The notes: generated by a model not told the origin, from the letters alone. Counted from the first letter of the whole stretch, positions 1,767 through 44,899 are shown. The stretch is DNA of 59,195 nt, filler included, from 5 parts of 5 records of this genome joined end to end with filler, not necessarily neighbours in it; one strand, 5' to 3'. Numbers and translations: made by a program.

Positions 1767-2285
1767 GTGAACCCACCGACCAATGTGATCCAGACTGCCC
1801 TGCTTTTGCGGATTGTCGCTATCCTGGCCTTTCCGGTCGGTGTGGTGATTGCAGCGCTGATGGAGCGTAGTGTGCTCATGGTCGCCTTGCTCGCAGCGGG
1901 CATGTTGGCGGTCAGCTGGGTCGAGCGGTTTCGACTGCACCGGTTGTCCGGGAATGATGCGTACCCCGCCATCACGGGATTATTGCCCGGCTTTGCTGTG
2001 CGAGCAGGCTTTCTGGCTGGCCTGTTCATTGTCAGCCTTGGCGTGCTCGCTCTGTTTCGTGAGACCATTCTGGCGCGGGGGCTCGGTCTGACTGATCTTG
2101 GTCTTTTTTCTGCCGTGGCTGGCGTTACTCTGCTGGCCAATGCCATCAGCGCGCGCATGGCGACCCGGGAAGTGTCGAGTGTCATGGCCCAGATGAACGC
2201 CAATATCACGCCGCCGGGCGGGGCGTCTCAGGCTGGCGTAGGGCCGGGTGAAATCATCGAAGGCGAAGTGATCGACCGCGACTGA
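1767..2285 (+). CDS. Hypothetical multi-TM membrane protein
   Basis: GTG start after GAGGAG; about 4 hydrophobic segments; C-terminal IIEGEVID tail. Confidence 0.7.
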   Translation: MNPPTNVIQTALLLRIVAILAFPVGVVIAALMERSVLMVALLAAGMLAVSWVERFRLHRLSGNDAYPAITGLLPGFAVRAGFLAGLFIVSLGVLALFRETILARGLGLTDLGLFSAVAGVTLLANAISARMATREVSSVMAQMNANITPPGGASQAGVGPGEIIEGEVIDRD

Positions 2286-2398
2286 AACGGGTATGGTCTC
2301 GTTACCGCAAACATTCATGAGCACCATGCGATTCCAGGCGGTTTCGTGAGGGCTGCAAATCGGCTATACGGCGCGGGCTCTAAAGGAATTTCCCCTCA

Positions 2399-2701
2399 AT
2401 GTCTGACATGATTGGCCTGATGGCCGCAGCTCTGACGACCCTGTCTTTCCTGCCTCAGGCCCTGATGGTCATTCGCACCGGAAGGACTGATGGGATTTCG
2501 CTGATCATGTATGCGATGTTCACTACCGGCGTCGCAGGTTGGCTGGTCTATGGCATTCTGCTGGGATCGCTCCCCATGATCGTGGCCAATAGCGTCACGC
2601 TGCTGTTGGCCAGTATGATCCTGGCCCTCAAAGTGCGTCACTCGCTTCAGGCCAAAGCCCAAGCCGCGACCTTTTCCACATCAGCGCCAATCGCCTCATA
2701 A
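2399..2701 (+). CDS. SemiSWEET (PQ-loop) sugar transporter
   Basis: IGLMAAALTTLSFLPQ...TDGISLIMY...WLVYG...PMIVAN motifs; overlaps the convergent aminotransferase gene by 55 bp. Confidence 0.9.
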   Translation: MSDMIGLMAAALTTLSFLPQALMVIRTGRTDGISLIMYAMFTTGVAGWLVYGILLGSLPMIVANSVTLLLASMILALKVRHSLQAKAQAATFSTSAPIAS

Positions 2702-3531
2702 TAGAGGCGCTGTACTTGCCGCGTAACAGGGCCCGGCTTGCCGGTGCCGACCGGTCGATCCTCCAGCTGTATGACAGGCGCAATCATAGCCCCCGCTGAG
2801 GTCGTGAAAATCTCCTTGGCAGCGTATGCCTCATTCGGTGTGAAGGCGCGCTCCTCGATATCCAGTCCCTGATTGCGAAGCCGGGCAATGACATGGGCGC
2901 GCGTAATTCCGGGCAGTATGTCGCTGGACAGATTGCGCGTGATGATCCGGCCCTCCTCGGTCACGATCCATGTATTGGCTGAGGCCGCTTCGGTGACGTG
3001 GCCGTCCTCGACCATGAACGCGGTTTCGGCGCCGGCTTCGCGCGCAGCGCGGTAGGCGAGGGCCTGCGACAGGAGTTGAGTTGTCTTGATATCGCGCCGA
3101 CGCCAGCGAATGTCGTTCAGGAAGATGGCGCGAATGCCCTGTTCGGCTTTCTCACTGATCAGGGGGCGATGATCCGCATACAGGAAAATTGTGGGTGTGA
3201 AGGTCTCCGGGCCAGCAAAATCCCGGGAGTCGTAGGCGCCTGCTGAAACTTCGAGATAGATCAGTCCCTCTGAAAGGCCGTTGCGGGCAATCAACTGGCT
3301 GTGAATGTCCTCCCACGCGGCCGCGTCATGTGGGTTAGGGATGGAAATTGCTTCCAGCGTGTTGCCGAGGCGCGACACATGACCTTCGAAATCGATCAGT
3401 TTTCCGCCGTAAACAGCGGTCACTTCATAGGCTGCGTGGGAAAACAGGAATCCCCGGTCCAGCGGGGAGATCAGGGCGTCTTTCCGCTGGGTGAAGACTC
3501 CGTTCAGATAAACCGTGTCGCCGATAGACAT
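2647..3531 (-). CDS. dat: Class IV PLP aminotransferase, D-amino-acid transaminase type
   Basis: Start re-assigned to MSIGDTVYLNG; ISPLDRGFLF, RRDIKTTQLL (catalytic Lys) and ILPGITR motifs. Confidence 0.85.
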   Translation of the reverse strand: MSIGDTVYLNGVFTQRKDALISPLDRGFLFSHAAYEVTAVYGGKLIDFEGHVSRLGNTLEAISIPNPHDAAAWEDIHSQLIARNGLSEGLIYLEVSAGAYDSRDFAGPETFTPTIFLYADHRPLISEKAEQGIRAIFLNDIRWRRRDIKTTQLLSQALAYRAAREAGAETAFMVEDGHVTEAASANTWIVTEEGRIITRNLSSDILPGITRAHVIARLRNQGLDIEERAFTPNEAYAAKEIFTTSAGAMIAPVIQLEDRPVGTGKPGPVTRQVQRLYYEAIGADVEKVAAWALA

Positions 3532-3693: not shown

Positions 3694-4950
3694 ATGGCAA
3701 GGGAAACCAAAGATATTTACGAGCTCGGCGAGATCCCGCCGGAGTTCCACGTTCCGAAGATGATGCACGCCTGGGCGATCCGCCGCGACCGTCACGGGCG
3801 TCCGTCAACGGCGATGCAGCTGGAACAGGTTCCGGTTCCGGAAATCGATTCCGACGAAGTGCTGGTCCTCGTGATGGCAGCTGGCGTGAACTATAATGGC
3901 ATCTGGGCCGCACTTGGCGAGCCGATGTCCGTATTCGACGTTCACAAGCAGGATTTCCACGTTGCAGGGTCCGACGCGTCCGGGATCGTATGGGCTGTCG
4001 GTCGCAAAGTGACACGCGTGAAGCCGGGTGACGAAGTGGTCATCCACTGCAACCAGGATGATGGCGACGACGAGGAATGTAATGGCGGCGACCCGATGTT
4101 CTCGCCCAGTCAGCGTATCTGGGGCTACGAAACTCCAGACGGCTCCTTCGCCCAATTCTGCCGCGTGCAGGCGCGCCAATGCATGCCGCGCCCCAAGCAT
4201 CTGACCTGGGAAGAGAGCGCCTGCTACACACTGACGCTTGCCACAGCCTACCGCATGCTGTTCGGCCACCGCCCGCACATCGTGAAGCCGGCAGACAATG
4301 TCCTTGTCTGGGGCGCCTCGGGCGGCCTTGGCAGCTTCGGTGTCCAGCTTTGTGCTGTCACGGGGGCGAACGCGATTGGGGTCGTCGGAAGCGATGACAA
4401 GAAAGAGCATGTGCTCAGTCTCGGTGCCAAAGGCGTGCTCAACCGCAAGGACTTCAATTGCTGGGGGCAGCTGCCAACGGTGAATGGTCCGGAATTCAAT
4501 GACTATATGAAAGAGAGCCGAAAGTTCGGCAAGGCGATCTGGGAACTCACTGACAAGAAGGATGTCGACATCGTCTTCGAACATCCGGGTGAGTCGACTT
4601 TCCCTGTGTCTGTGTTCGTTGTGAAGCGTGGCGGCATGGTCGTCATCTGCGCCGGCACGACCGGCTTCAACCTGACCATGGATGCGCGCTTCCTCTGGAT
4701 GCGGCAGAAGCGGGTACAGGGCAGCCATTTCGCAAACCTGAAACAGGCAAGCGCCGCGAACCAATTGGTGATCAACCGGCGCATTGATCCGGGCATGTCC
4801 GAAGTCTTCCCGTGGGAAGACATTCCGGCCGCGCACGACAAGATGCTGGACAACAAGCATCTGCCTGGAAACATGGCTGTTCTGGTGACCTCACCAAAGC
4901 CGGGTCTCCGAACGGTTGAAGATGTTCTGGCGGTAAACGGCCAAGCCTAG
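3694..4950 (+). CDS. ccrA: Crotonyl-CoA carboxylase/reductase
   Basis: Start re-assigned to MARETKDIYELGEIPP; MAAGVNYNGIWA, QRIWGYETPDGSFAQF and WMRQKRVQGSHFAN motifs. Confidence 0.96.
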   Translation: MARETKDIYELGEIPPEFHVPKMMHAWAIRRDRHGRPSTAMQLEQVPVPEIDSDEVLVLVMAAGVNYNGIWAALGEPMSVFDVHKQDFHVAGSDASGIVWAVGRKVTRVKPGDEVVIHCNQDDGDDEECNGGDPMFSPSQRIWGYETPDGSFAQFCRVQARQCMPRPKHLTWEESACYTLTLATAYRMLFGHRPHIVKPADNVLVWGASGGLGSFGVQLCAVTGANAIGVVGSDDKKEHVLSLGAKGVLNRKDFNCWGQLPTVNGPEFNDYMKESRKFGKAIWELTDKKDVDIVFEHPGESTFPVSVFVVKRGGMVVICAGTTGFNLTMDARFLWMRQKRVQGSHFANLKQASAANQLVINRRIDPGMSEVFPWEDIPAAHDKMLDNKHLPGNMAVLVTSPKPGLRTVEDVLAVNGQA

Positions 4951-4961
4951 TAACAGGCCGT

Positions 4962-5315
4962 ATGGCCAGACTGGACGCTGATTCGTTTGCCCGTGAATGG
5001 GTAGCAGCCTGGAATGATCACGACCTCGACGCTGTGCTGTCGCACTATGCCGACGGGGTCGTGTTCCATTCGCCGCGCATTGCGCTGGTGATGGGGACGG
5101 ATGAGGATTTCCTGACTGGAAAAGCGGGGCTGCGCAAATACTGGCAGGCCGCAATGGCCAGCGCGAGTGATCTGTATTTTGAACTGGAAGACGTGTTGAC
5201 CGGATCAGACGCGATCACGTTGCTTTACACCAACCATCGCGGCCAGAACGCGGCTGAAACTTTTATTTTCGATGAGGATGGCGAAATCTGTATCGCTGTC
5301 GCGACCTACGGCTAA
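4962..5315 (+). CDS. SnoaL/NTF2-like protein
   Basis: FAREWVAAWNDHDLDAVLSHYADGVVFHSP motif. Confidence 0.85.
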   Translation: MARLDADSFAREWVAAWNDHDLDAVLSHYADGVVFHSPRIALVMGTDEDFLTGKAGLRKYWQAAMASASDLYFELEDVLTGSDAITLLYTNHRGQNAAETFIFDEDGEICIAVATYG

Positions 5316-37335: not shown

Positions 37336-38172
37336 GCTACTCTCATTATAACTCATAGCATTATCATCTTGCGACATTTGTACTTCAGCTTTTTCTAGGC
37401 CTTTTGCGCCATACGGTATATAGGTGTTATTCAATTTTGTGTTTAATTTTAAAATAGCATCATCGTATGGAGAGGCAACGTGTACTATGGCCTTATTATG
37501 ATCTATTGCCATATAATCGCCTCCAGTAAGTAGTGCACCATCTCGCCAATAAGAAGAAACGCCATGATTGTAGCTTCCGCAGAACATAGTATTTACAATA
37601 ATGCCATGTTCTTTAGCATTTTGTGAGGCATCAACATAGTTTATTTGTCCTTGCGTATACGGTTCATTTCCTGCTATAAAAATAAGCTTTAAGGTTTCGT
37701 CTTCGTTTTCCCATTCTAAATTGGTTACTGCAGTTTGTACAACTGTACCACAATATTCACTGCCGCCATTAGTAGTTAAAGAAAATAATGCTTTTGAGAC
37801 ATCATCTAAATCTTGTGTGAACTCTAAAATTTTGCGAGTATAGCCGTCATATTGAGAAAGGTTACTATTTCCATACTCATACAAAGCAATACTTAAGGTT
37901 GGTGCTTTTCCATAACATTTAGCTAAGGATAACTCATTTACAATATCCCAAAGTTGAGCTCTTGCTTGGTCTATTAATCCATCCATACTATTACTGGTAT
38001 CTAACAATAATGCAACCTGTATTTTTGGAGTCTCATTAGTCGCAGGTGTGTGTAATTGGTGAGTAACTTCTGGAGCATCTGCTAAGAGAGCTTCAGATTT
38101 TGAATTTGCATTTACGCAGCCAATAAGACTTAAACAACTTACAATAATTGGTAGGGCATTAATTTTCATCAT
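37336..38172 (-). CDS. von Willebrand factor A domain lipoprotein; 3' truncated
   Basis: Lipobox LIGC, MIDAS LLDTSNSM, GGSEYCG and IAGNEP motifs. Confidence 0.88.
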
Positions 38173-38230
38173 CTTTTTTTTAATTGAACATCATAAAAGT
38201 ACTTGTACAGCAGTGCAATAAAAATTGGTA

Positions 38231-38318
38231 ATGAGTAACTGGTACATACTATTGAGTGAATAGCACATATGAATGATTCAGCTATTCAAAATGAGAACAA
38301 AAACGTATTAAATTGAGT
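38231..38318. promoter_or_regulatory. LytTR-type direct repeats
   Basis: TGAGT 38232, TGAGT 38253, TGATT 38274 (21-bp period); second pair TGAGA 38292 / TGAGT 38314. Confidence 0.55.
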
Positions 38319-38385
38319 ATTTACAGCACATCTGCATTTTTTTGAACCGTTTTATTGTAGTAGGTTTAACCTTTCAAAAGTACTT

Positions 38386-40575
38386 ATGAAACACATTTTT
38401 ATCATCTTATTTTTCATATGTTCAGTGCCTTGTTGTGTTGCTCAAATTGGAGAACAAACTATTGTGAGAGGTACAGTTTTAGAAGAAGGTACATACAATC
38501 CTTTTTCCAACGCTAATGTTGAGGTTGTTGGAGGCGCTTATACGACCACAAATGCGGCTGGCGAATTTAGGTTACAGGCAAGAATAGGAGAAGAGCTTGT
38601 AATTAGACACGAAGATTTTGAAACGGTGTATCATACCATTGGTAGAAACGACAATATTAAACTCACAGTTGCACCAAACAAAACAAAACCTAAAGCTGTA
38701 AAGCGAAATAAACAGGTTACTCAAGAACGTTTTCAGCAGTATTTAGACTCTGCCAAAAATGTACTAAAAAAAGATGCAAAAATAAGTATCGAGTATGTTG
38801 CTAAGGCCTTGGCAACAGATCAAGAACAAGCGTTATCTAAACTTCAAAAAGCAAAGGCTTATGAGTTGCTGGGCGATATTTACACGTATTGGAAACAGCA
38901 TGATTTAGCAGTCAGCAATTACAAGTTTGCTATACGAGATAATGTTTCTACACAACGGCAGCTAAAATTGGCAAAAGCTTATACACTCAATAAGAACTAC
39001 CAAGAAAGTATATCTCTTTATAATGAGCTAAAAAATAAATCGCTTTCTAATTATAATGAAGTTTTACGATTAGAAGGTTTGGGAGATACCTATAAAAATA
39101 CTGGTGATTTAAATAAAGCTATTACCCAATATCAACAAGCGCTTACCTTGGCAGAAAAGCATTTGTTTACGCCAAAAGTTACAGACTTAAATTCCAAAAT
39201 CGCGGAGGCTTATGATGCTAAAGGAGCTACTAAGCCTGCAGAAGATTATTATGAAAATTCTTTAAACCTTGCTAATAAGGAAACACGTAAACGTGCTGCA
39301 GAAGAAAAAACTAAGGTAGCAGATTTTTACAGTAAGAAAAGATCTTATAGAGAAGAAATTCAATTACGCCAAGAGGCCTTAAAAGATATTGAGGTATTGT
39401 CTGAAGATGCTGTGGAGAAAGAACAGGAAATTGATAACGAGAGTGCATTAACACCACAAAAACAAAACTATAAAATTGCAAACGCCTACGCTGCGCAGGA
39501 AAATATTGAAGATGCCATACCGTATTTACAAAAGAGTATAAAAGAAGCCAAGACAAACAATGATTTGGTGGTGCAAAAGGACGCAACAAGAAAATTAGGA
39601 GAGCTTTATAGAGCAAAGGGAGATATAACTAAAGCCGAAGAAACGTTTAAGGATTATGAAGTTGTTGTAGATCAACTTTACGTTCAGAAAGAACAGGAAA
39701 TTTCTCAGGCAGCTCGGTTTAGTAGAGATCTCACACTAAAACAAACTCGAATAGAAAGCTTAGAAAAAGACAGAGCGCTAAATGAGTCGCGTTACCAATT
39801 AGCGGTGGAAAATCAAAGCTTAGTAAACCAAAGCAACAGAAGGCAAAAATGGATTATTGGTGTTTTAATTGCATTGGCGTTTGCACTATTGGTTGCAGCA
39901 TATTTAATGTACAGGAACAACAAACAGCAAAAATTTGCAAATAACTTATTGGCTTTAAAGTCGCTGCGCTCACAAATGAATCCGCACTTTATATTTAACG
40001 CACTCAACTCTGTAAACAGCTTTATAGCAACTAATGATGAGCGTGCCGCTAACAGATATCTATCCGAGTTTTCTGGGCTTATGAGAGCTGTTTTAGAAAA
40101 CAGTGAGGAAGATTTTATACCATTATCAAAAGAGATAGAGCTGCTTCAAAAGTATACCAAGTTAGAGCACTTTAGGTTTCAGGATAAGTTTGATTATGAT
40201 ATTTTGGTCGATGATGCAATACCTACAGATCAATTTAAAATTCCTCCTATGTTATTACAGCCTTATGTAGAAAATGCAGTGTGGCACGGCTTGAGGTATA
40301 AGGAAGATAAAGGTAATTTGTTGGTACATTTTCAATTAAAAGATGAGCATACAGTAGTTATTATAATTGAAGATGATGGAATTGGCAGAGCCCAATCTAA
40401 AGCTATTAAAACAGACAATCAGAAAAAACAAAAGTCTCAAGGCATGAGTAATATACAACGTCGCATTTCAATATTAAACGATATGTATAGTGACACTATT
40501 GCAATTGCCATTTCAGATAAAGACCAAACTAACCACACAGGAACTCGTGTTGCTGTAACCTTAAAGAAACACTAA
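38386..40575 (+). CDS. LytS-family sensor kinase with periplasmic TPR region
   Basis: Signal peptide, carboxypeptidase-regulatory-like N-domain, TPRs, TM, then LRSQMNPHFIFNALNS, QPYVENAVWHG and DDGIG. Confidence 0.93.
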   Translation: MKHIFIILFFICSVPCCVAQIGEQTIVRGTVLEEGTYNPFSNANVEVVGGAYTTTNAAGEFRLQARIGEELVIRHEDFETVYHTIGRNDNIKLTVAPNKTKPKAVKRNKQVTQERFQQYLDSAKNVLKKDAKISIEYVAKALATDQEQALSKLQKAKAYELLGDIYTYWKQHDLAVSNYKFAIRDNVSTQRQLKLAKAYTLNKNYQESISLYNELKNKSLSNYNEVLRLEGLGDTYKNTGDLNKAITQYQQALTLAEKHLFTPKVTDLNSKIAEAYDAKGATKPAEDYYENSLNLANKETRKRAAEEKTKVADFYSKKRSYREEIQLRQEALKDIEVLSEDAVEKEQEIDNESALTPQKQNYKIANAYAAQENIEDAIPYLQKSIKEAKTNNDLVVQKDATRKLGELYRAKGDITKAEETFKDYEVVVDQLYVQKEQEISQAARFSRDLTLKQTRIESLEKDRALNESRYQLAVENQSLVNQSNRRQKWIIGVLIALAFALLVAAYLMYRNNKQQKFANNLLALKSLRSQMNPHFIFNALNSVNSFIATNDERAANRYLSEFSGLMRAVLENSEEDFIPLSKEIELLQKYTKLEHFRFQDKFDYDILVDDAIPTDQFKIPPMLLQPYVENAVWHGLRYKEDKGNLLVHFQLKDEHTVVIIIEDDGIGRAQSKAIKTDNQKKQKSQGMSNIQRRISILNDMYSDTIAIAISDKDQTNHTGTRVAVTLKKH

Positions 40576-41306
40576 TGATCTTAGATGCCATTTTAGTTGA
40601 AGATGAGGCAAGAAGCCGTGATATTCTTAGAAATTACATTACTAAATACTGTCCAAATATTAATTTGGTAGGCGAAGCAAGTGGTGTAGATGAAGGTCTT
40701 GAGCTTATAAGAAATCATCAATTAGATCTTGTGTTTCTAGACGTTGAAATGCCGTATGGTAATGCGTTCGACCTTCTTGAAAAAGTAGGCGACCGCACAT
40801 TTGAAACGGTTTTTGTTACCGCTTATGATCATTATGCAAAAGACGCCTTAAATGCTCACGCTTCGTACTATCTTTTAAAACCAATAAATATAGATGAGCT
40901 TATAAAAGCTGTAGATTATGTGGTGGCTATAAAAACCAAAGAATCACAGTTAAAGGATAAAGTGCTTTCTGCAAATATAAAAGCTGTAGATGGTAAAATA
41001 ACCATTCCTACACAAGAGGGTTTTGAGGTCTTACAGGTTAATAACATTTTATACTGCGAAGCAGATAACAACTACACTACCATTTATTTAGAAGACACTA
41101 AAAAAGTGGTGAGCAAAACTCTTAAGTATTTTGAGGATGCGCTAACAGATTCTGGTTTTGCCAGAATACACAAATCCTATCTTGTTAATGTAAACGCCAT
41201 TACCAAATATATAAAGGGAAAAGGTGGCCAAGTAGAGTTAAAAAACGGTAAAGTACTTTCTGTTTCTGCATCTAAGAAAGCAGATCTTTTAAATTATTTT
41301 TCCTGA
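40575..41306 (+). CDS. LytTR response regulator
   Basis: FLDVEMP, FVTAYD, YLLKP and FARIHKSYLVN motifs. Confidence 0.95.
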   Translation: MILDAILVEDEARSRDILRNYITKYCPNINLVGEASGVDEGLELIRNHQLDLVFLDVEMPYGNAFDLLEKVGDRTFETVFVTAYDHYAKDALNAHASYYLLKPINIDELIKAVDYVVAIKTKESQLKDKVLSANIKAVDGKITIPTQEGFEVLQVNNILYCEADNNYTTIYLEDTKKVVSKTLKYFEDALTDSGFARIHKSYLVNVNAITKYIKGKGGQVELKNGKVLSVSASKKADLLNYFS

Positions 41307-43390
41307 TCTTCTAATATAGTTAGTGCAAACTTAAGTTTCCAATACGGTATGGTTTCTTCAAAATGAAGGTAGTAGGGTTTTAAACCTTCAGGATGGTTTA
41401 AGGTTTTACTTGCAGTCTTAACTTTAGAAAGTTCTTCATCTGTTACAAATTCATTTAAGTTTAATGAAAGTTTATCTTCTAAATGAAGCTTTAGTAAGTG
41501 GCTGTAAATAGTGTTTAAAGACAAATCACGCTCTTTGCTAATATCTTCAACAGGCATTCCTTGCGTATATAATTGAAGCGTTTGTTGGTACGTGTCTACC
41601 TTAGGTTTTTGTTGTGCTTTATATGTTTTAATTACATCAATAAACGGTTCTGCATAGCTCTCTAACTTAGCTTTACCAACACCACTAATATCTGCAAAAG
41701 CTTCAATTGTGGTAGGTTGTTTCTTAATCATATCTTTTAAGCTGGCATCACTAAAAATAATATAGGCAGGCACATTTTTTTCAGCAGCTATAGCAGAACG
41801 CTTGTTTCGCAATTGCTCAAATAGGCTGTCATTCTTAGTTACTTTAGTAGTCTTAGCATCTTTTAAAGCTTTCACATCTTCGGTATGTGCTAGTTGAATG
41901 CTCTGCCCTTCAAATAAAATTGCCTTTGCTAAAGGTGTAAGCACTAATCTTCCATTTTCGTGAAAGTAAACCTCCAACACACCAAGATTTATTAATTGAA
42001 TAATGTATTGTTGTAAATCGTTCCACGAGACATTGCTTATAGCACCATAGGTCTTTATATGCTGGTATCCTTTATCAAATACTTGTGCATTTTTGGCACC
42101 GCGTAACACATCAACAATCATAGTGACACCTTCTTGTTCTTTAACGCGTGCCACTGCAGAGCAAACCTTTTGCGCTATAACTGTTCCGTCTACATATTTA
42201 GGCGGATTTTGACAAACATCACAATACCCACAATCTTTAGTAAGATGTTCTCCAAAATAATTAAGCAAGGCTTTTCTGCGGCAACTTAATGCTTCAGCGT
42301 AATGTTGCATACGCTCTAATTTTGCCAACTGAAACTCTTCTGTAGCTGTGCCTTCGGTAAATCTTCGTAATTGTATCACATCTGCATAACTGTAAAACAG
42401 TAAGGTGTGTGCTTTTAAGCCATCTCGTCCTGCACGACCAATTTCTTGATAATAGCCTTCAATATTCTTAGGCATATTATAATGTATAACCCAACGCACA
42501 TTACTTTTATCTATTCCCATACCAAAGGCAATGGTTGCCACAATAATGGGTGTGGTGTCATTTACAAAATCCTCTTGTATGCTAGCACGATCTTCTGGAG
42601 ATAAACCTGCGTGATATGCTTTAGCCTTATAGCCAGCTTGTTTTAGTTTTTGGGCAAGCTTTTCTGTACTCTTTCTGCTCAGGCAATAAATAATACCGCT
42701 TTGGGCACCTCGAGGACCTAAAAATTTAAGAATTTGTTTAATGCGACTTTGACCTGGTCTTACATCTAAAAATAAATTTTGCCTATCAAAAGAGGCCAAG
42801 TGCTTTTTAGCGTGAGAGATATTAAGCTGTTTGCTAATATCGTCTTGTGTTGCCTTATCGGCAGTTGCTGTAAGAGCAATTATGGGAATTTGTGGAAATT
42901 CCTGTTTTAAACTCCCAAGTTTAGTGTAGGCTGGTCTAAAATCATGTCCCCAAGCAGAAATACAATGCGCCTCATCTACCGCAATTAGGTTAAGAGTAAT
43001 TGTACTAATGGTGTGGCGTAAGTTTGGTAAGCTTTCTGGTGCCACATAAAATAAAGACAACTCATCTTGTGTAAGTTGTTGCAACACGTGTTGCTGCTCT
43101 TCTTCTGGTTGGCTACTGTTGTAATAAGCAGCAGATATACCATTGGCTCGCAATGCATCTACCTGATCTTTCATAAGAGCAATTAATGGCGAAATAACCA
43201 AAGCAGTTCCTTCTTTGGCTAATGCAGGCAATTGGTAGCACAACGATTTTCCACCACCAGTAGGCATAATAGCTAAGGTGTCTTTCCCCGAAAGCACATC
43301 GTTTATAATGGCTTCTTGGTTGGGCTTAAAGCTGTCATAACCAAAATGAGTTTTTAATAGTTGGGTGATAGATGAAGTAGTAGATGTCAT
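41294..43390 (-). CDS. recQ: DNA helicase RecQ
   Basis: MPTGGGKS, DEAHCISAWGHDFRP, QEIGRAGRDG, Zn/RQC and HRDC domains. Confidence 0.97.
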   Translation of the reverse strand: MTSTTSSITQLLKTHFGYDSFKPNQEAIINDVLSGKDTLAIMPTGGGKSLCYQLPALAKEGTALVISPLIALMKDQVDALRANGISAAYYNSSQPEEEQQHVLQQLTQDELSLFYVAPESLPNLRHTISTITLNLIAVDEAHCISAWGHDFRPAYTKLGSLKQEFPQIPIIALTATADKATQDDISKQLNISHAKKHLASFDRQNLFLDVRPGQSRIKQILKFLGPRGAQSGIIYCLSRKSTEKLAQKLKQAGYKAKAYHAGLSPEDRASIQEDFVNDTTPIIVATIAFGMGIDKSNVRWVIHYNMPKNIEGYYQEIGRAGRDGLKAHTLLFYSYADVIQLRRFTEGTATEEFQLAKLERMQHYAEALSCRRKALLNYFGEHLTKDCGYCDVCQNPPKYVDGTVIAQKVCSAVARVKEQEGVTMIVDVLRGAKNAQVFDKGYQHIKTYGAISNVSWNDLQQYIIQLINLGVLEVYFHENGRLVLTPLAKAILFEGQSIQLAHTEDVKALKDAKTTKVTKNDSLFEQLRNKRSAIAAEKNVPAYIIFSDASLKDMIKKQPTTIEAFADISGVGKAKLESYAEPFIDVIKTYKAQQKPKVDTYQQTLQLYTQGMPVEDISKERDLSLNTIYSHLLKLHLEDKLSLNLNEFVTDEELSKVKTASKTLNHPEGLKPYYLHFEETIPYWKLKFALTILEDQEK

Positions 43391-43460
43391 TTAAAAGTGA
43401 GCTTTCTATAGTATACGTTGCGCCGTTAAGGTAAGAATTAGGGATGAGTGAAAAACGAAA

Positions 43461-43503
43461 AGCGAAGAAAAATATATGTAATATATATGTTGTTTTCTTC
43501 GCT
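43461..43503 (-). terminator. Terminator after ssb
   Basis: AGCGAAGAAAA...TTTTCTTCGCT stem, followed by a U-rich tract on the minus strand. Confidence 0.75.
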
Positions 43504-43523
43504 ATTGTTTTCTGACTTTAAAA

Positions 43524-43856
43524 TTATTTAGACATCATTAGCAGCTCACTGCAAACCACTTCTGTGGTGTAGCGTTTGTTGCCATCTTTATCGTCCCAAG
43601 AACGGTTGGTAAGCTTTCCCGTTATGGCTACTTCTTTACCTTTACACACATAATTTTCTACAATCTCTGCGGTTTTGCCCCAAGCTACAATATTGTGCCA
43701 ATAGGTTTGTTCTACCTTTTCTCCATTTTTGTCTTTATAAGATTCGTTTGTGGCGATTGAAAATTTAGCCAGTTTCTTACCTGACTCTAAGTTGATAATT
43801 TCTGGGTCTTGTCCCAAATTCCCGATCAATTGTACGTTGTTTCTTAGCGTTTGCAT
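43524..43856 (-). CDS. ssb: Single-stranded DNA-binding protein, short form without acidic tail
   Basis: NNVQLIGNLGQDPE, WHNIVAWGK and RYTTEV motifs; ends ELLMMSK. Confidence 0.93.
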   Translation of the reverse strand: MQTLRNNVQLIGNLGQDPEIINLESGKKLAKFSIATNESYKDKNGEKVEQTYWHNIVAWGKTAEIVENYVCKGKEVAITGKLTNRSWDDKDGNKRYTTEVVCSELLMMSK

Positions 43857-43950
43857 AATAATTAGTTTTTAAATTAAACAATTGAGATAATGACAGATTA
43901 GTTGTATTGACTGCCGATGCAAAGATGTAGCAGCGTTCTTGTATTAATCG

Positions 43951-44004
43951 GTAAGTAAATATTTGTAAACGATTGTAAGTGTTTGTTGTCGCTTGTAAAT
44001 GTTT
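43951..44004. repeat. 10-bp-period direct repeat array upstream of ssb
   Basis: GTAAGTAAAT/ATTTGTAAAC/GATTGTAAGT/GTTTGTTGTC/GCTTGTAAAT. Confidence 0.7.
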
Positions 44005-44071
44005 AAATAATTACAAATCAATTTATTATGTTAATTTAAAAATTATAAGTTTTTTAATGTGTTTTATTGAT

Positions 44072-44113
44072 TAAGTTTGGAGTTACGCTTATAAACTAGT
44101 TGTAGGTAATTTT
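44072..44113 (+). promoter_or_regulatory. Promoter (-7 TAAGTTTG) and attI-like junction preceding the cassette
   Basis: TAnnTTTG at 44072-44079; GTTGTAGGTAATTTT at 44099-44113 is complementary (14/15) to 44672-44686. Confidence 0.6.
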
Positions 44114-44872
44114 GGCAAACGTTAAACTATGATAATAAAAATAGGTTTTTTGCTACTTTCAATAATTTTCATTGGATGTGATAGTAACGAGAAAAAGAGT
44201 ATGTATAATAGCGGATTAAAACAAGAATCACAACAATTACTAATCGAACCCGACACTATTTATGATGTTGAACTTGCAATAAAATTGTGGGAAAAACAAG
44301 ATACTGTAAGCGCAATTATAATTGATACAGCTTGTATAAAACAAAAGGAAAGAGCAAAAACTGATATAGATAATGGCAAACTGATTTATTATCGCTCGAA
44401 AATTTGGTATGAATGGAAAGAAATGGCGGAATTGTTATCGGACTATGATATTGAATACAAAGATTTTGACCACTTTTGTTTCGGACCACCACCTGGATTT
44501 GAATATGATTGTTATGAAAAAGAAATGTGGAATGCCATAAACAATAAACTTGGAGCGAACACAATCGATTCATTATGGCAAATAGCGGAAAAAAAGTTCG
44601 TTTTAAAATATCCAGACAGTGTTTATATAAAGGACGGAATTGACATAAGGAGTAAATATCTGACTGAGTAAAAAACTACCTACAACAATGTATATAAAAA
44701 ATAGCGCGATCAGCTGAAAACACAGACGTTCGGGCACTTTTTCGAGGTCGCCAAATTTTTAAATTTGGCTATTTGAGAAAAGAAATATAAATAGAAAAAT
44801 TTAAAAATTCGGCTCGAGTACAACCGAACGGTTAGCGCCCTTTTTCAGCGCTACTTTTCATATACTGAGACG
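44100..44872 (+). mobile_element. Putative integron-like gene cassette (773 bp)
   Basis: Single ORF bounded by G|TT sites, with a 3' attC-like hairpin. Confidence 0.7.
44129..44671 (+). CDS. Orphan lipoprotein (cassette cargo)
   Basis: MIIKIGFLLLSIIFIGC lipobox; no family recognised. Confidence 0.8.
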   Translation: MIIKIGFLLLSIIFIGCDSNEKKSMYNSGLKQESQQLLIEPDTIYDVELAIKLWEKQDTVSAIIIDTACIKQKERAKTDIDNGKLIYYRSKIWYEWKEMAELLSDYDIEYKDFDHFCFGPPPGFEYDCYEKEMWNAINNKLGANTIDSLWQIAEKKFVLKYPDSVYIKDGIDIRSKYLTE

Positions 44873-44877
44873 TTGTA
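44681..44877. repeat. 197-bp imperfect palindrome, attC-like
   Basis: Nested pairings TACAAC/GTTGTA, 44690-707/44848-865 (16/18), 44727-33/44824-30, 44750-66/44797-813 (16/17), 44769-74/44789-94. Confidence 0.85.
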
Positions 44878-44899
44878 ATGCAAGTTGAGCAACGAAACG

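Follow-up and report, generated by a model that had tools for sequence, protein, structure and literature searches.

The stretch of DNA analysed here (the window: 59,195 nucleotides (nt), made up of several contigs joined by N linkers) carries between positions 44,072 and 44,899 a gene for a predicted lipoprotein followed by a long imperfect hairpin, and the question raised by this locus is whether the two together form a mobile gene cassette of the kind found in integrons. An earlier note, made from the sequence alone, had proposed an integron-like cassette with an attC-type hairpin. Integrons are the textbook system of gene capture and by definition require the integrase IntI; definitions of integrons (IntI, attI and attC cassettes), of sedentary chromosomal integrons and of clusters of attC sites lacking integron-integrases (CALINs) were reportedly set out by Cury et al. 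in 2016. We consider it likely that positions 44100-44872 constitute a mobile cassette of 773 nt, the first of at least five next to the ssb gene, and that it belongs to an integron-like capture system of marine Flavobacteriaceae served by an Xer/IntI-like recombinase encoded elsewhere. The cassette interpretation is supported by the array in which the element lies, the covariation of cassette ends, the signs of mobility, the spread of the sites and their linkage to a recombinase; the system is not a canonical integron.

The proposed cassette and its hairpin

Every element that the earlier note had listed, namely the 15-mer, the open reading frame (ORF), the reverse complement, the boxes, spacers and arms and the contig break, is present where it had been placed, all on the plus strand. 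The cassette opens with the half-site R', GTTGTAGGTAATTTT (44099-44113), which has the form GTT-N7-ATTT with GTAGGTA as its seven-nucleotide core (N7), and the crossover would lie between G 44099 and T 44100. The ORF (ATG at 44129 to TAA at 44669-44671) encodes a protein of 180 amino acids (aa) with a predicted lipoprotein-type signal and no Pfam family. Its stop codon is directly followed by the 3' end of the cassette, the half-site R'', AAAACTACCTACAAC (44672-44686; form AAAC-N7'-AAC), which is the reverse complement of the 5' end at 14 of 15 positions. The terminal boxes TACAAC (44681-44686) and GTTGTA (44872-44877) face each other across an attC-like site body (44687-44871), in which the spacers AAT (44687-44689) and TGAGAC (44866-44871), read from the sequence, enclose two 18-nt arms (44690-44707 and 44848-44865; 16 of 18 positions paired, both mismatches being A.C on the top strand) and a nested interior of 140 nt. 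This interior contains terminator-like stem-loops followed by T runs and resembles a Marinirhabdus site (in locus L107) and a decayed site in L017. The second GTT begins the next cassette, G|TTGTAATGC... (44872-44899), which is cut by the end of the contig at 44899, 27 nt past this G, and continues in a metagenome contig, L112; from TT 44100 to G 44872 the cassette measures 773 nt.

With up to two mismatches allowed, the window has the 15-mer of the cassette ends at these two places and nowhere else, against an expectation of 0.20, and two or more occurrences were obtained in 2 of 100 shuffles. Bare inverted pairs are not rare, as GTT...AAC 13-mer pairs number 168 in about 1.1 Mb of related loci, compared with a mean of 170 for six control triplets. 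The plain scan for such pairs was therefore rejected as a non-discriminating detector, and the inverted repeat becomes meaningful only together with the hairpin and comparative data. When folded as single-stranded DNA, the window hairpin reaches -39.2 kcal/mol (z -5.8) on the bottom strand versus -33.8 kcal/mol (z -3.7) on the top strand, with 0 of 200 shuffles folding as well on either strand, in agreement with the bottom-strand preference previously read from its mismatches. Of 19 sites of this kind, 17 fold better as bottom strand than as top strand, and G.T pairs make up 59 of 976 predicted pairs on the bottom strand versus 11 of 882 on the top strand; giving a site the 5' end of its own cassette improved the fold in 15 of 15 cases.

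The G.T bias would be fitted equally well by an antisense RNA, in which these pairs would become G.U in a bottom-strand transcript. That the hairpin is such an RNA-level element, whether antisense RNA, processing signal or terminator, is nonetheless highly improbable: a search of Rfam, proposed in the earlier note as a check of novelty, returned no family matching the hairpin (at E<=10 only eukaryotic and other chance matches), and such an element would leave unexplained the pairing of ends across entire cassettes as well as the breakpoints at GTT and the recombinase linkage described below.

Cassette ends, the site family and probable exchange between arrays

The rules of the cassette ends were derived from 17 cassettes, 400-1700 nt in length, drawn from six loci (L112, L111, L016, L077, L107 and L108), for which the general form is 5' GTT-N7-ATTT ... 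AAAC-N7'-AAC 3'. The two ends of a cassette match each other at a mean of 12.3 of 14 positions. Within the core 110 of 119 N7 positions pair, while pairs other than a cassette's own average 2.43 of 7, and 0 of 20,000 permutations reached the observed N7 sum. Position 11 shows an A/C mismatch on the top strand, equivalent to a G.T pair on the bottom strand, in 17 of 17 cassettes. Each 5' GTT-N7 is thus complementary to its own 3' N7-AAC, as the cassette model had predicted. Compared in place within the array, the two boxes of one site agree at just 6.8 of 14 positions on average (19 sites). The R-box consensus of attC sites is RYYYAAC/GTTRRRY, which the boxes of the window site, CTACAAC/GTTGTAA, do not fit; with 16 distinct N7 words among the 17 cassettes and sites of 115-203 nt from AAC to GTT, the departure from GTTRRRY and from typical attC length that had been noted in the window holds for the larger sample.

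In every site examined the beginning lies at a stop codon or a few nt past it, and 20-55 nt separate the end from the start codon that follows; the copies sit, as anticipated, between unrelated ORFs that are co-oriented with the array in 17 of 17 cassettes. Only one of 17 cassette proteins has a Pfam family above cut-off (FMN_red, in L017), and no immunity family was seen in this Pfam scan, which small orphan proteins could escape. One 1746-nt 'cassette' of L108 (G264:C3) includes overlapping ORFs of 257 and 152 aa (2047-3299) that resemble an IS3-type transposase pair.

An inverted repeat of 14-15 nt flanking each ORF might instead mark gene segments that are inverted in place, as by the invertases of Bacteroidota, and the recombinase described in the next section does match models of tyrosine-type DNA invertases weakly (48-51 bits). 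Inversion, however, would swap the A kept at 5' position 11 with the C of its 3' partner, an arrangement preserved in 17 of 17 cassettes; the uniform orientation of the ORFs speaks against inversion too, and the differences between strains are replacements and not inversions. We regard this as the least probable of the explanations weighed here.

The sites form a family with many copies. When ten short sites (143-148 nt, flanks included) are aligned, AAC and GTT show no variation, and the consensus stem has 18 pairs, ten of which show compensatory changes; all 19 complete sites have the inverted AAC...GTT end triplets and an imperfect stem. A covariance model of the site (R1), from whose training set the long site of the window was left out, matches that site at 44673-44886 with 34.1 bits (E 4e-4 over 1 Mb). 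In three carrier genomes R1 has 31, 22 and 18 matches, clustered in arrays or on small contigs. At E<=1e-6, with up to 20 candidates scored per genome, R1 matches 126 of 151 sampled Flavobacteriaceae species genomes, as opposed to 2 of 101 genomes of a GC-rich control family, with one weak match each. The hairpin is accordingly not the single-copy element that would have spoken against a cassette site.

The array itself becomes visible in L112, which is 99.98% identical to the window contig over 4771 nt and runs past its break. Beyond that point L112 shows cassettes 2-5 (the ORF of cassette 2 has 98 aa) and three further sites, with four sites lying within 2.3 kb, so that the cassette of the window is indeed the first of an array. 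A comparison of strains at the ssb locus, advocated in the earlier note, is provided by a second metagenome contig, L110: it is 98.8% identical to L112 as far as position 5235, where the GTT of site 2 has its last T, and past this point carries cassettes unrelated to those of L112. The same 5' word, GTTGTAATGCAA, heads cassette 2 (L112 4744, in both strains) and cassette 3 of L110 (5233), and of the cassettes headed by it only the one of L110 has a matching 3' end; this shared word may be the trace of an exchange that did not take place at G|TT.

The gene of cassette 1 likewise occurs in other contexts. A homologue 82% identical at the aa level lies inside a different array in L111, with nucleotide homology to the window extending from the G of GTTGTAGG to directly after CTACAAC. 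Among 401 sampled Flavobacteriaceae genomes only two have homologues (L143, 51% aa identity; L144, 33%), and three metagenome loci have them as well; all homologues found lie in arrays, those of L111, L143 and L144 each between R1 matches. In L143 the terminal 14-mers are identical to those of the window, while the untranslated leader differs, and the terminal 14-mers are identical in L111 too. Since only two of the 401 genomes have the gene, and in both it lies within another array, it is neither fixed nor syntenic. R1 matches lie beside ssb in 3 of 80 recQ-ssb loci: L016 (Marinirhabdus gelatinilytica), L026 and L077. The two cassettes of L016 and the one of L077 each start with GTTGT... and end with the reverse complement of their own start, the words being different. 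L017 holds a decayed copy, the left half of which is 77% identical to the window hairpin over 101 nt.

A multi-copy hairpin with arms resembling terminal inverted repeats also invites comparison with MITEs, the miniature transposable elements bounded by inverted repeats, and repetitive extragenic palindromic (REP) sequences, which are likewise short, multi-copy, hairpin-forming and intergenic. Passages of PMC11602168, a MITE catalogue covering Flavobacterium, report thousands of MITEs from automated screens of that genus, and the catalogue may list these hairpins. Under this explanation the hairpin would be a transposing intergenic repeat that serves as a terminator or mRNA stabiliser (to which the stem-loops and T runs of its interior would be suited), and the flanking inverted repeat would be coincidental. 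Yet no target-site duplication flanks the window hairpin, whose flanks differ; the copies always extend from a stop codon to just before the next co-oriented ORF; insertion of a repeat cannot explain ends that covary cassette by cassette; the breakpoints of homology fall at GTT and AAC and not at the ends of the repeat; and the linked enzyme is a tyrosine recombinase and not a transposase. We therefore hold a MITE or REP-like origin to be very unlikely.

Public sequencing runs give a further view of the array. The region 3700-6900 of L112 is partly present in 18 runs from seven studies, 12 of which hold only about half its words. When contigs of four runs were compared with L112, breaks fell inside sites in four of four, with depth spikes there, and both breaks and pile-up fit a repeat. 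In run X6 a contig breaks at 3944-3973, at the first GTT, which gives no more than a hint of a variant there. The joints seen in the contigs of the four runs have sides of less than 30 nt and may come from other organisms, and the fact that cassettes 3-4 of L112 are uncovered in three of the four runs proves nothing.

The linked recombinase and its relation to known systems

The tyrosine recombinase that the cassette model called for is found next to such arrays in other genomes. In G263:C9 (M. gelatinilytica) and in G264:C3, where the array has at least seven cassettes, the array lies directly downstream of a gene for a 387-aa tyrosine recombinase on the same strand, with at least two co-directional genes downstream of it in either genome. 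Full-length homologues of this recombinase (34-68% identity, E<=1e-60) occur in 77 of the 151 sampled genomes. In the 30 best recombinase loci, R1 matches are present in 18, and 28 of 28 matches are downstream and co-oriented, with none upstream; eight of the 12 match-free loci have less than 500 nt of downstream sequence, so that sites lie downstream of and co-oriented with the recombinase in 18 of 22 testable loci. The protein combines an integrase catalytic domain and a SAM-like domain with about 100 extra N-terminal residues, and its nearest Atlas clusters are all from Bacteroidota. In L107 (G263:C9) the stop codon of the recombinase gene is separated from the first site by about 280 nt of non-coding sequence (1908-2189), comparatively rich in GC, in which the platform may have a promoter or regulatory structure. 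In L109 (G265:C25) a 266-aa ORF (285-1085), which we take to resemble an rRNA adenine methyltransferase, adjoins the recombinase homologue.

The enzyme also resembles the Xer proteins (archaeal XerA, bacterial XerC/XerD). Among NCBIfam models NF040815, 'site-specific tyrosine recombinase/integron integrase', scores highest (218 bits versus a cut-off of 220); of the solved structures XerA (5hxy, 139.8 bits) matches best, and RKHRHY-type catalytic motifs are visible in the alignment. Unlike Xer proteins, it stays below every curated Xer cut-off, possesses the N-terminal extension, and is encoded at the head of cassette arrays, whereas Xer acts at a single dif site.

The resemblance to integrons is extensive. 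Both systems comprise arrays of co-oriented, mostly orphan genes, each followed by a folded AAC...GTT site; in both the 5' end of a cassette is complementary to its own 3' box, the site has an unpaired asymmetric spacer and a better-folding bottom strand, some clusters are free of a recombinase, and the recombinase falls within the Xer/IntI branch of the tyrosine recombinases. Bacteroidota, moreover, are listed among integron-bearing phyla in passages of PMC8618304. All this would also be expected of the remnant of a canonical integron, that is, an ordinary CALIN of true attC sites with a classical IntI elsewhere, an explanation that we nevertheless consider very unlikely. None of three carrier genomes has a match to the integron-integrase model TIGR02249 at its cut-off, and the linked recombinase matches this model in two pieces with 208 bits versus a cut-off of 265. 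Residues ~209-240 of VchIntIA (2a3v), which we take to be the IntI-specific helix or domain, have no counterpart in the aligned recombinase, and the N-terminal extension of about 100 aa likewise sets it apart. Its gene is co-oriented with the cassettes, whereas integron intI is divergently transcribed, and the first site after it is itself a hairpin of the same family (L107 1761-1907) in place of the simple attI of integrons. The R stem is 14 bp long with a free 7-nt core instead of RYYYAAC/GTTRRRY, the sites are longer than those of integrons, and the gene is not passed on together with its hairpin body. For Bacteroidetes, the accessible part of the IntegronFinder 2.0 paper (10.1101/2022.02.28.482270) records only In0 elements earlier and a single complete integron, that of Salinibacter ruber. 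The window array may rather be seen as an analogue of a CALIN, with sites in a row and no recombinase nearby, in which the sites are not canonical attC.

The closest published system, compared here by its description in excerpts of the source, is rAID-1, the recombinase-associated acquired interbacterial defence clusters of gut Bacteroidales (Ross et al., 10.1101/471110). According to these excerpts it is present in 226 of 423 Bacteroidales genomes, is recognised by an XerD-like recombinase at the 5' side that shares at least 44% identity with BF9343_RS08045, and has a recombinase whose close homologues (>50% identity) are confined to Bacteroidales. The two systems share the phylum, a wide distribution and an XerD-like recombinase gene 5' of a co-directional array of small genes, and the intergenic repeats of rAID-1 are called 'reminiscent of integrons' by its authors. 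They differ in host order and in cargo, as rAID-1 holds immunity genes of the type VI secretion system while 16 of 17 cassette proteins here are without a Pfam family; and own-end complementarity and G|TT are not described for rAID-1 sites in the excerpts. The window array has no recombinase, unlike rAID-1, and the rAID-1 pattern of co-directional genes applies to G263:C9 and G264:C3. Our literature search found no paper describing the flavobacterial cassette system.

These observations suggest how the integron-like system might work. Each cassette starts at G|TT and ends in an AAAC-N7-AAC complementary to its own GTT-N7-ATTT, and the site between two cassettes consists of AAC, a short spacer, a long imperfect stem with variable interior, a spacer of 5-6 nt and GTT. 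An Xer/IntI-like tyrosine recombinase, specific to Bacteroidota and with its gene elsewhere in the genome, is proposed to recombine such sites at or next to GTT, probably acting on the folded bottom strand. Excision would yield a circle in which the two ends of the cassette form a 14-bp stem beside the hairpin, and this circle would re-insert at another site, the array of the window being served in trans. We infer a single-stranded substrate, cleavage exactly at G|TT, a circular intermediate and this recombinase as the catalyst; duplex recombination with N7 as the overlap region, or exchange on both sides of the hairpin, is a possible alternative to this scheme.

Several observations weigh against the scheme as drawn. 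The hairpin bodies differ, and the homology of the window with both L111 and L143 ends right after AAC; a single crossover at G|TT does not predict that the hairpin body is left behind. In L112 the own ends of cassette 2 match at only 7 of 14 positions, and its 5' end fits the 3' end of another cassette, in L110. The R stem of sites within the array is largely unpaired in place, which leaves the recognition of such sites unexplained. Neither an excised circle nor an empty site was seen in the contigs of the four runs compared with L112, which gave weak joints only. On the side of the enzyme, 4 of 22 recombinase loci with full flanks have no site within 1.5 kb, and the recombinase copy of G265 has no adjoining array. 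No recombinase was found in the window, just as the earlier note had reported for an integrase, nor in L110 or the 8.5 kb of L112, and it is for this reason that catalysis in trans is assumed.

It is conceivable, though on balance somewhat doubtful, that the mobile unit is instead GTT...AAC, tagged by a cassette-specific complementary word of 7 nt, with the hairpin bodies belonging to the array, in a system that is independent of IntI and family-wide. Both flanks of the hairpin would then undergo exchange, at R' and R'' or on either strand, and this would account for terminal 14-mers that remain identical at 51% protein identity and for the same gene being found with different hairpins.

As a whole the data indicate an integron analogue with a simpler Xer-like enzyme in most of the sampled genomes of the Flavobacteriaceae, a major family among marine bacteria, with cassettes in which nearly all genes are of unknown function. 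Such a system would widen the concept of the integron, and would reveal a large pool of mobile genes that is probably unreported by current tools, no Flavobacteriaceae integron appearing in the accessible part of the IntegronFinder 2.0 paper. It would also account for the break-up of these assemblies into small contigs at such sites. Marinirhabdus gelatinilytica DSM 101478, which is in culture, offers a tractable model for the evolution of hairpin-site recombination and its relation to rAID-1 of gut Bacteroides.

The genomic setting of the array

The window mixes contigs of two organisms, since the GC content is about 60% at positions 1-29928 and about 33% in the remainder (30029-59195), and the bin seems to be chimeric; G001, the nearest genome, is related to the GC-rich part alone. 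Both recQ and ssb lie on the contig bearing the cassette (37336-44899). The RecQ encoded there shares 57-69% identity with the RecQ of Patiriisocius, Marinirhabdus, Ulvibacter, Aequorivita and others, and the contig is therefore assigned to the Flavobacteriaceae, without a close relative among the species compared. The ssb gene (43524-43856, minus strand; Pfam SSB, E 1.5e-34) forms the fixed chromosomal flank, recQ adjoining ssb in most of the 80 related loci, and the array begins 243 nt from the ssb start codon and points away from it.

Upstream of ssb, at 43945-44000, there is a run of GTTTGTAA/GTTTATAA-like repeats, which is kept in many of the 80 related loci and could either serve ssb regulation or be the reason why arrays repeatedly settle there. 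When R1 was run over 1.2 kb with filters off, it gave only fragmentary alignments, among them one of 15.9 bits upstream of ssb at 43957-43998, which resembles a pair of R boxes without a hairpin body.

Among other candidate sites, L012 and L011 were rejected as GC-rich chance matches, and L065 and L069 as motif matches within coding sequence. L009 (G085:C210) is an AT-rich 2-kb contig with a flavobacterial-type site inside the genome of a member of a GC-rich family, and is probably a contamination of the G085 assembly; its site has the same outer architecture as that of the window around a shorter interior.

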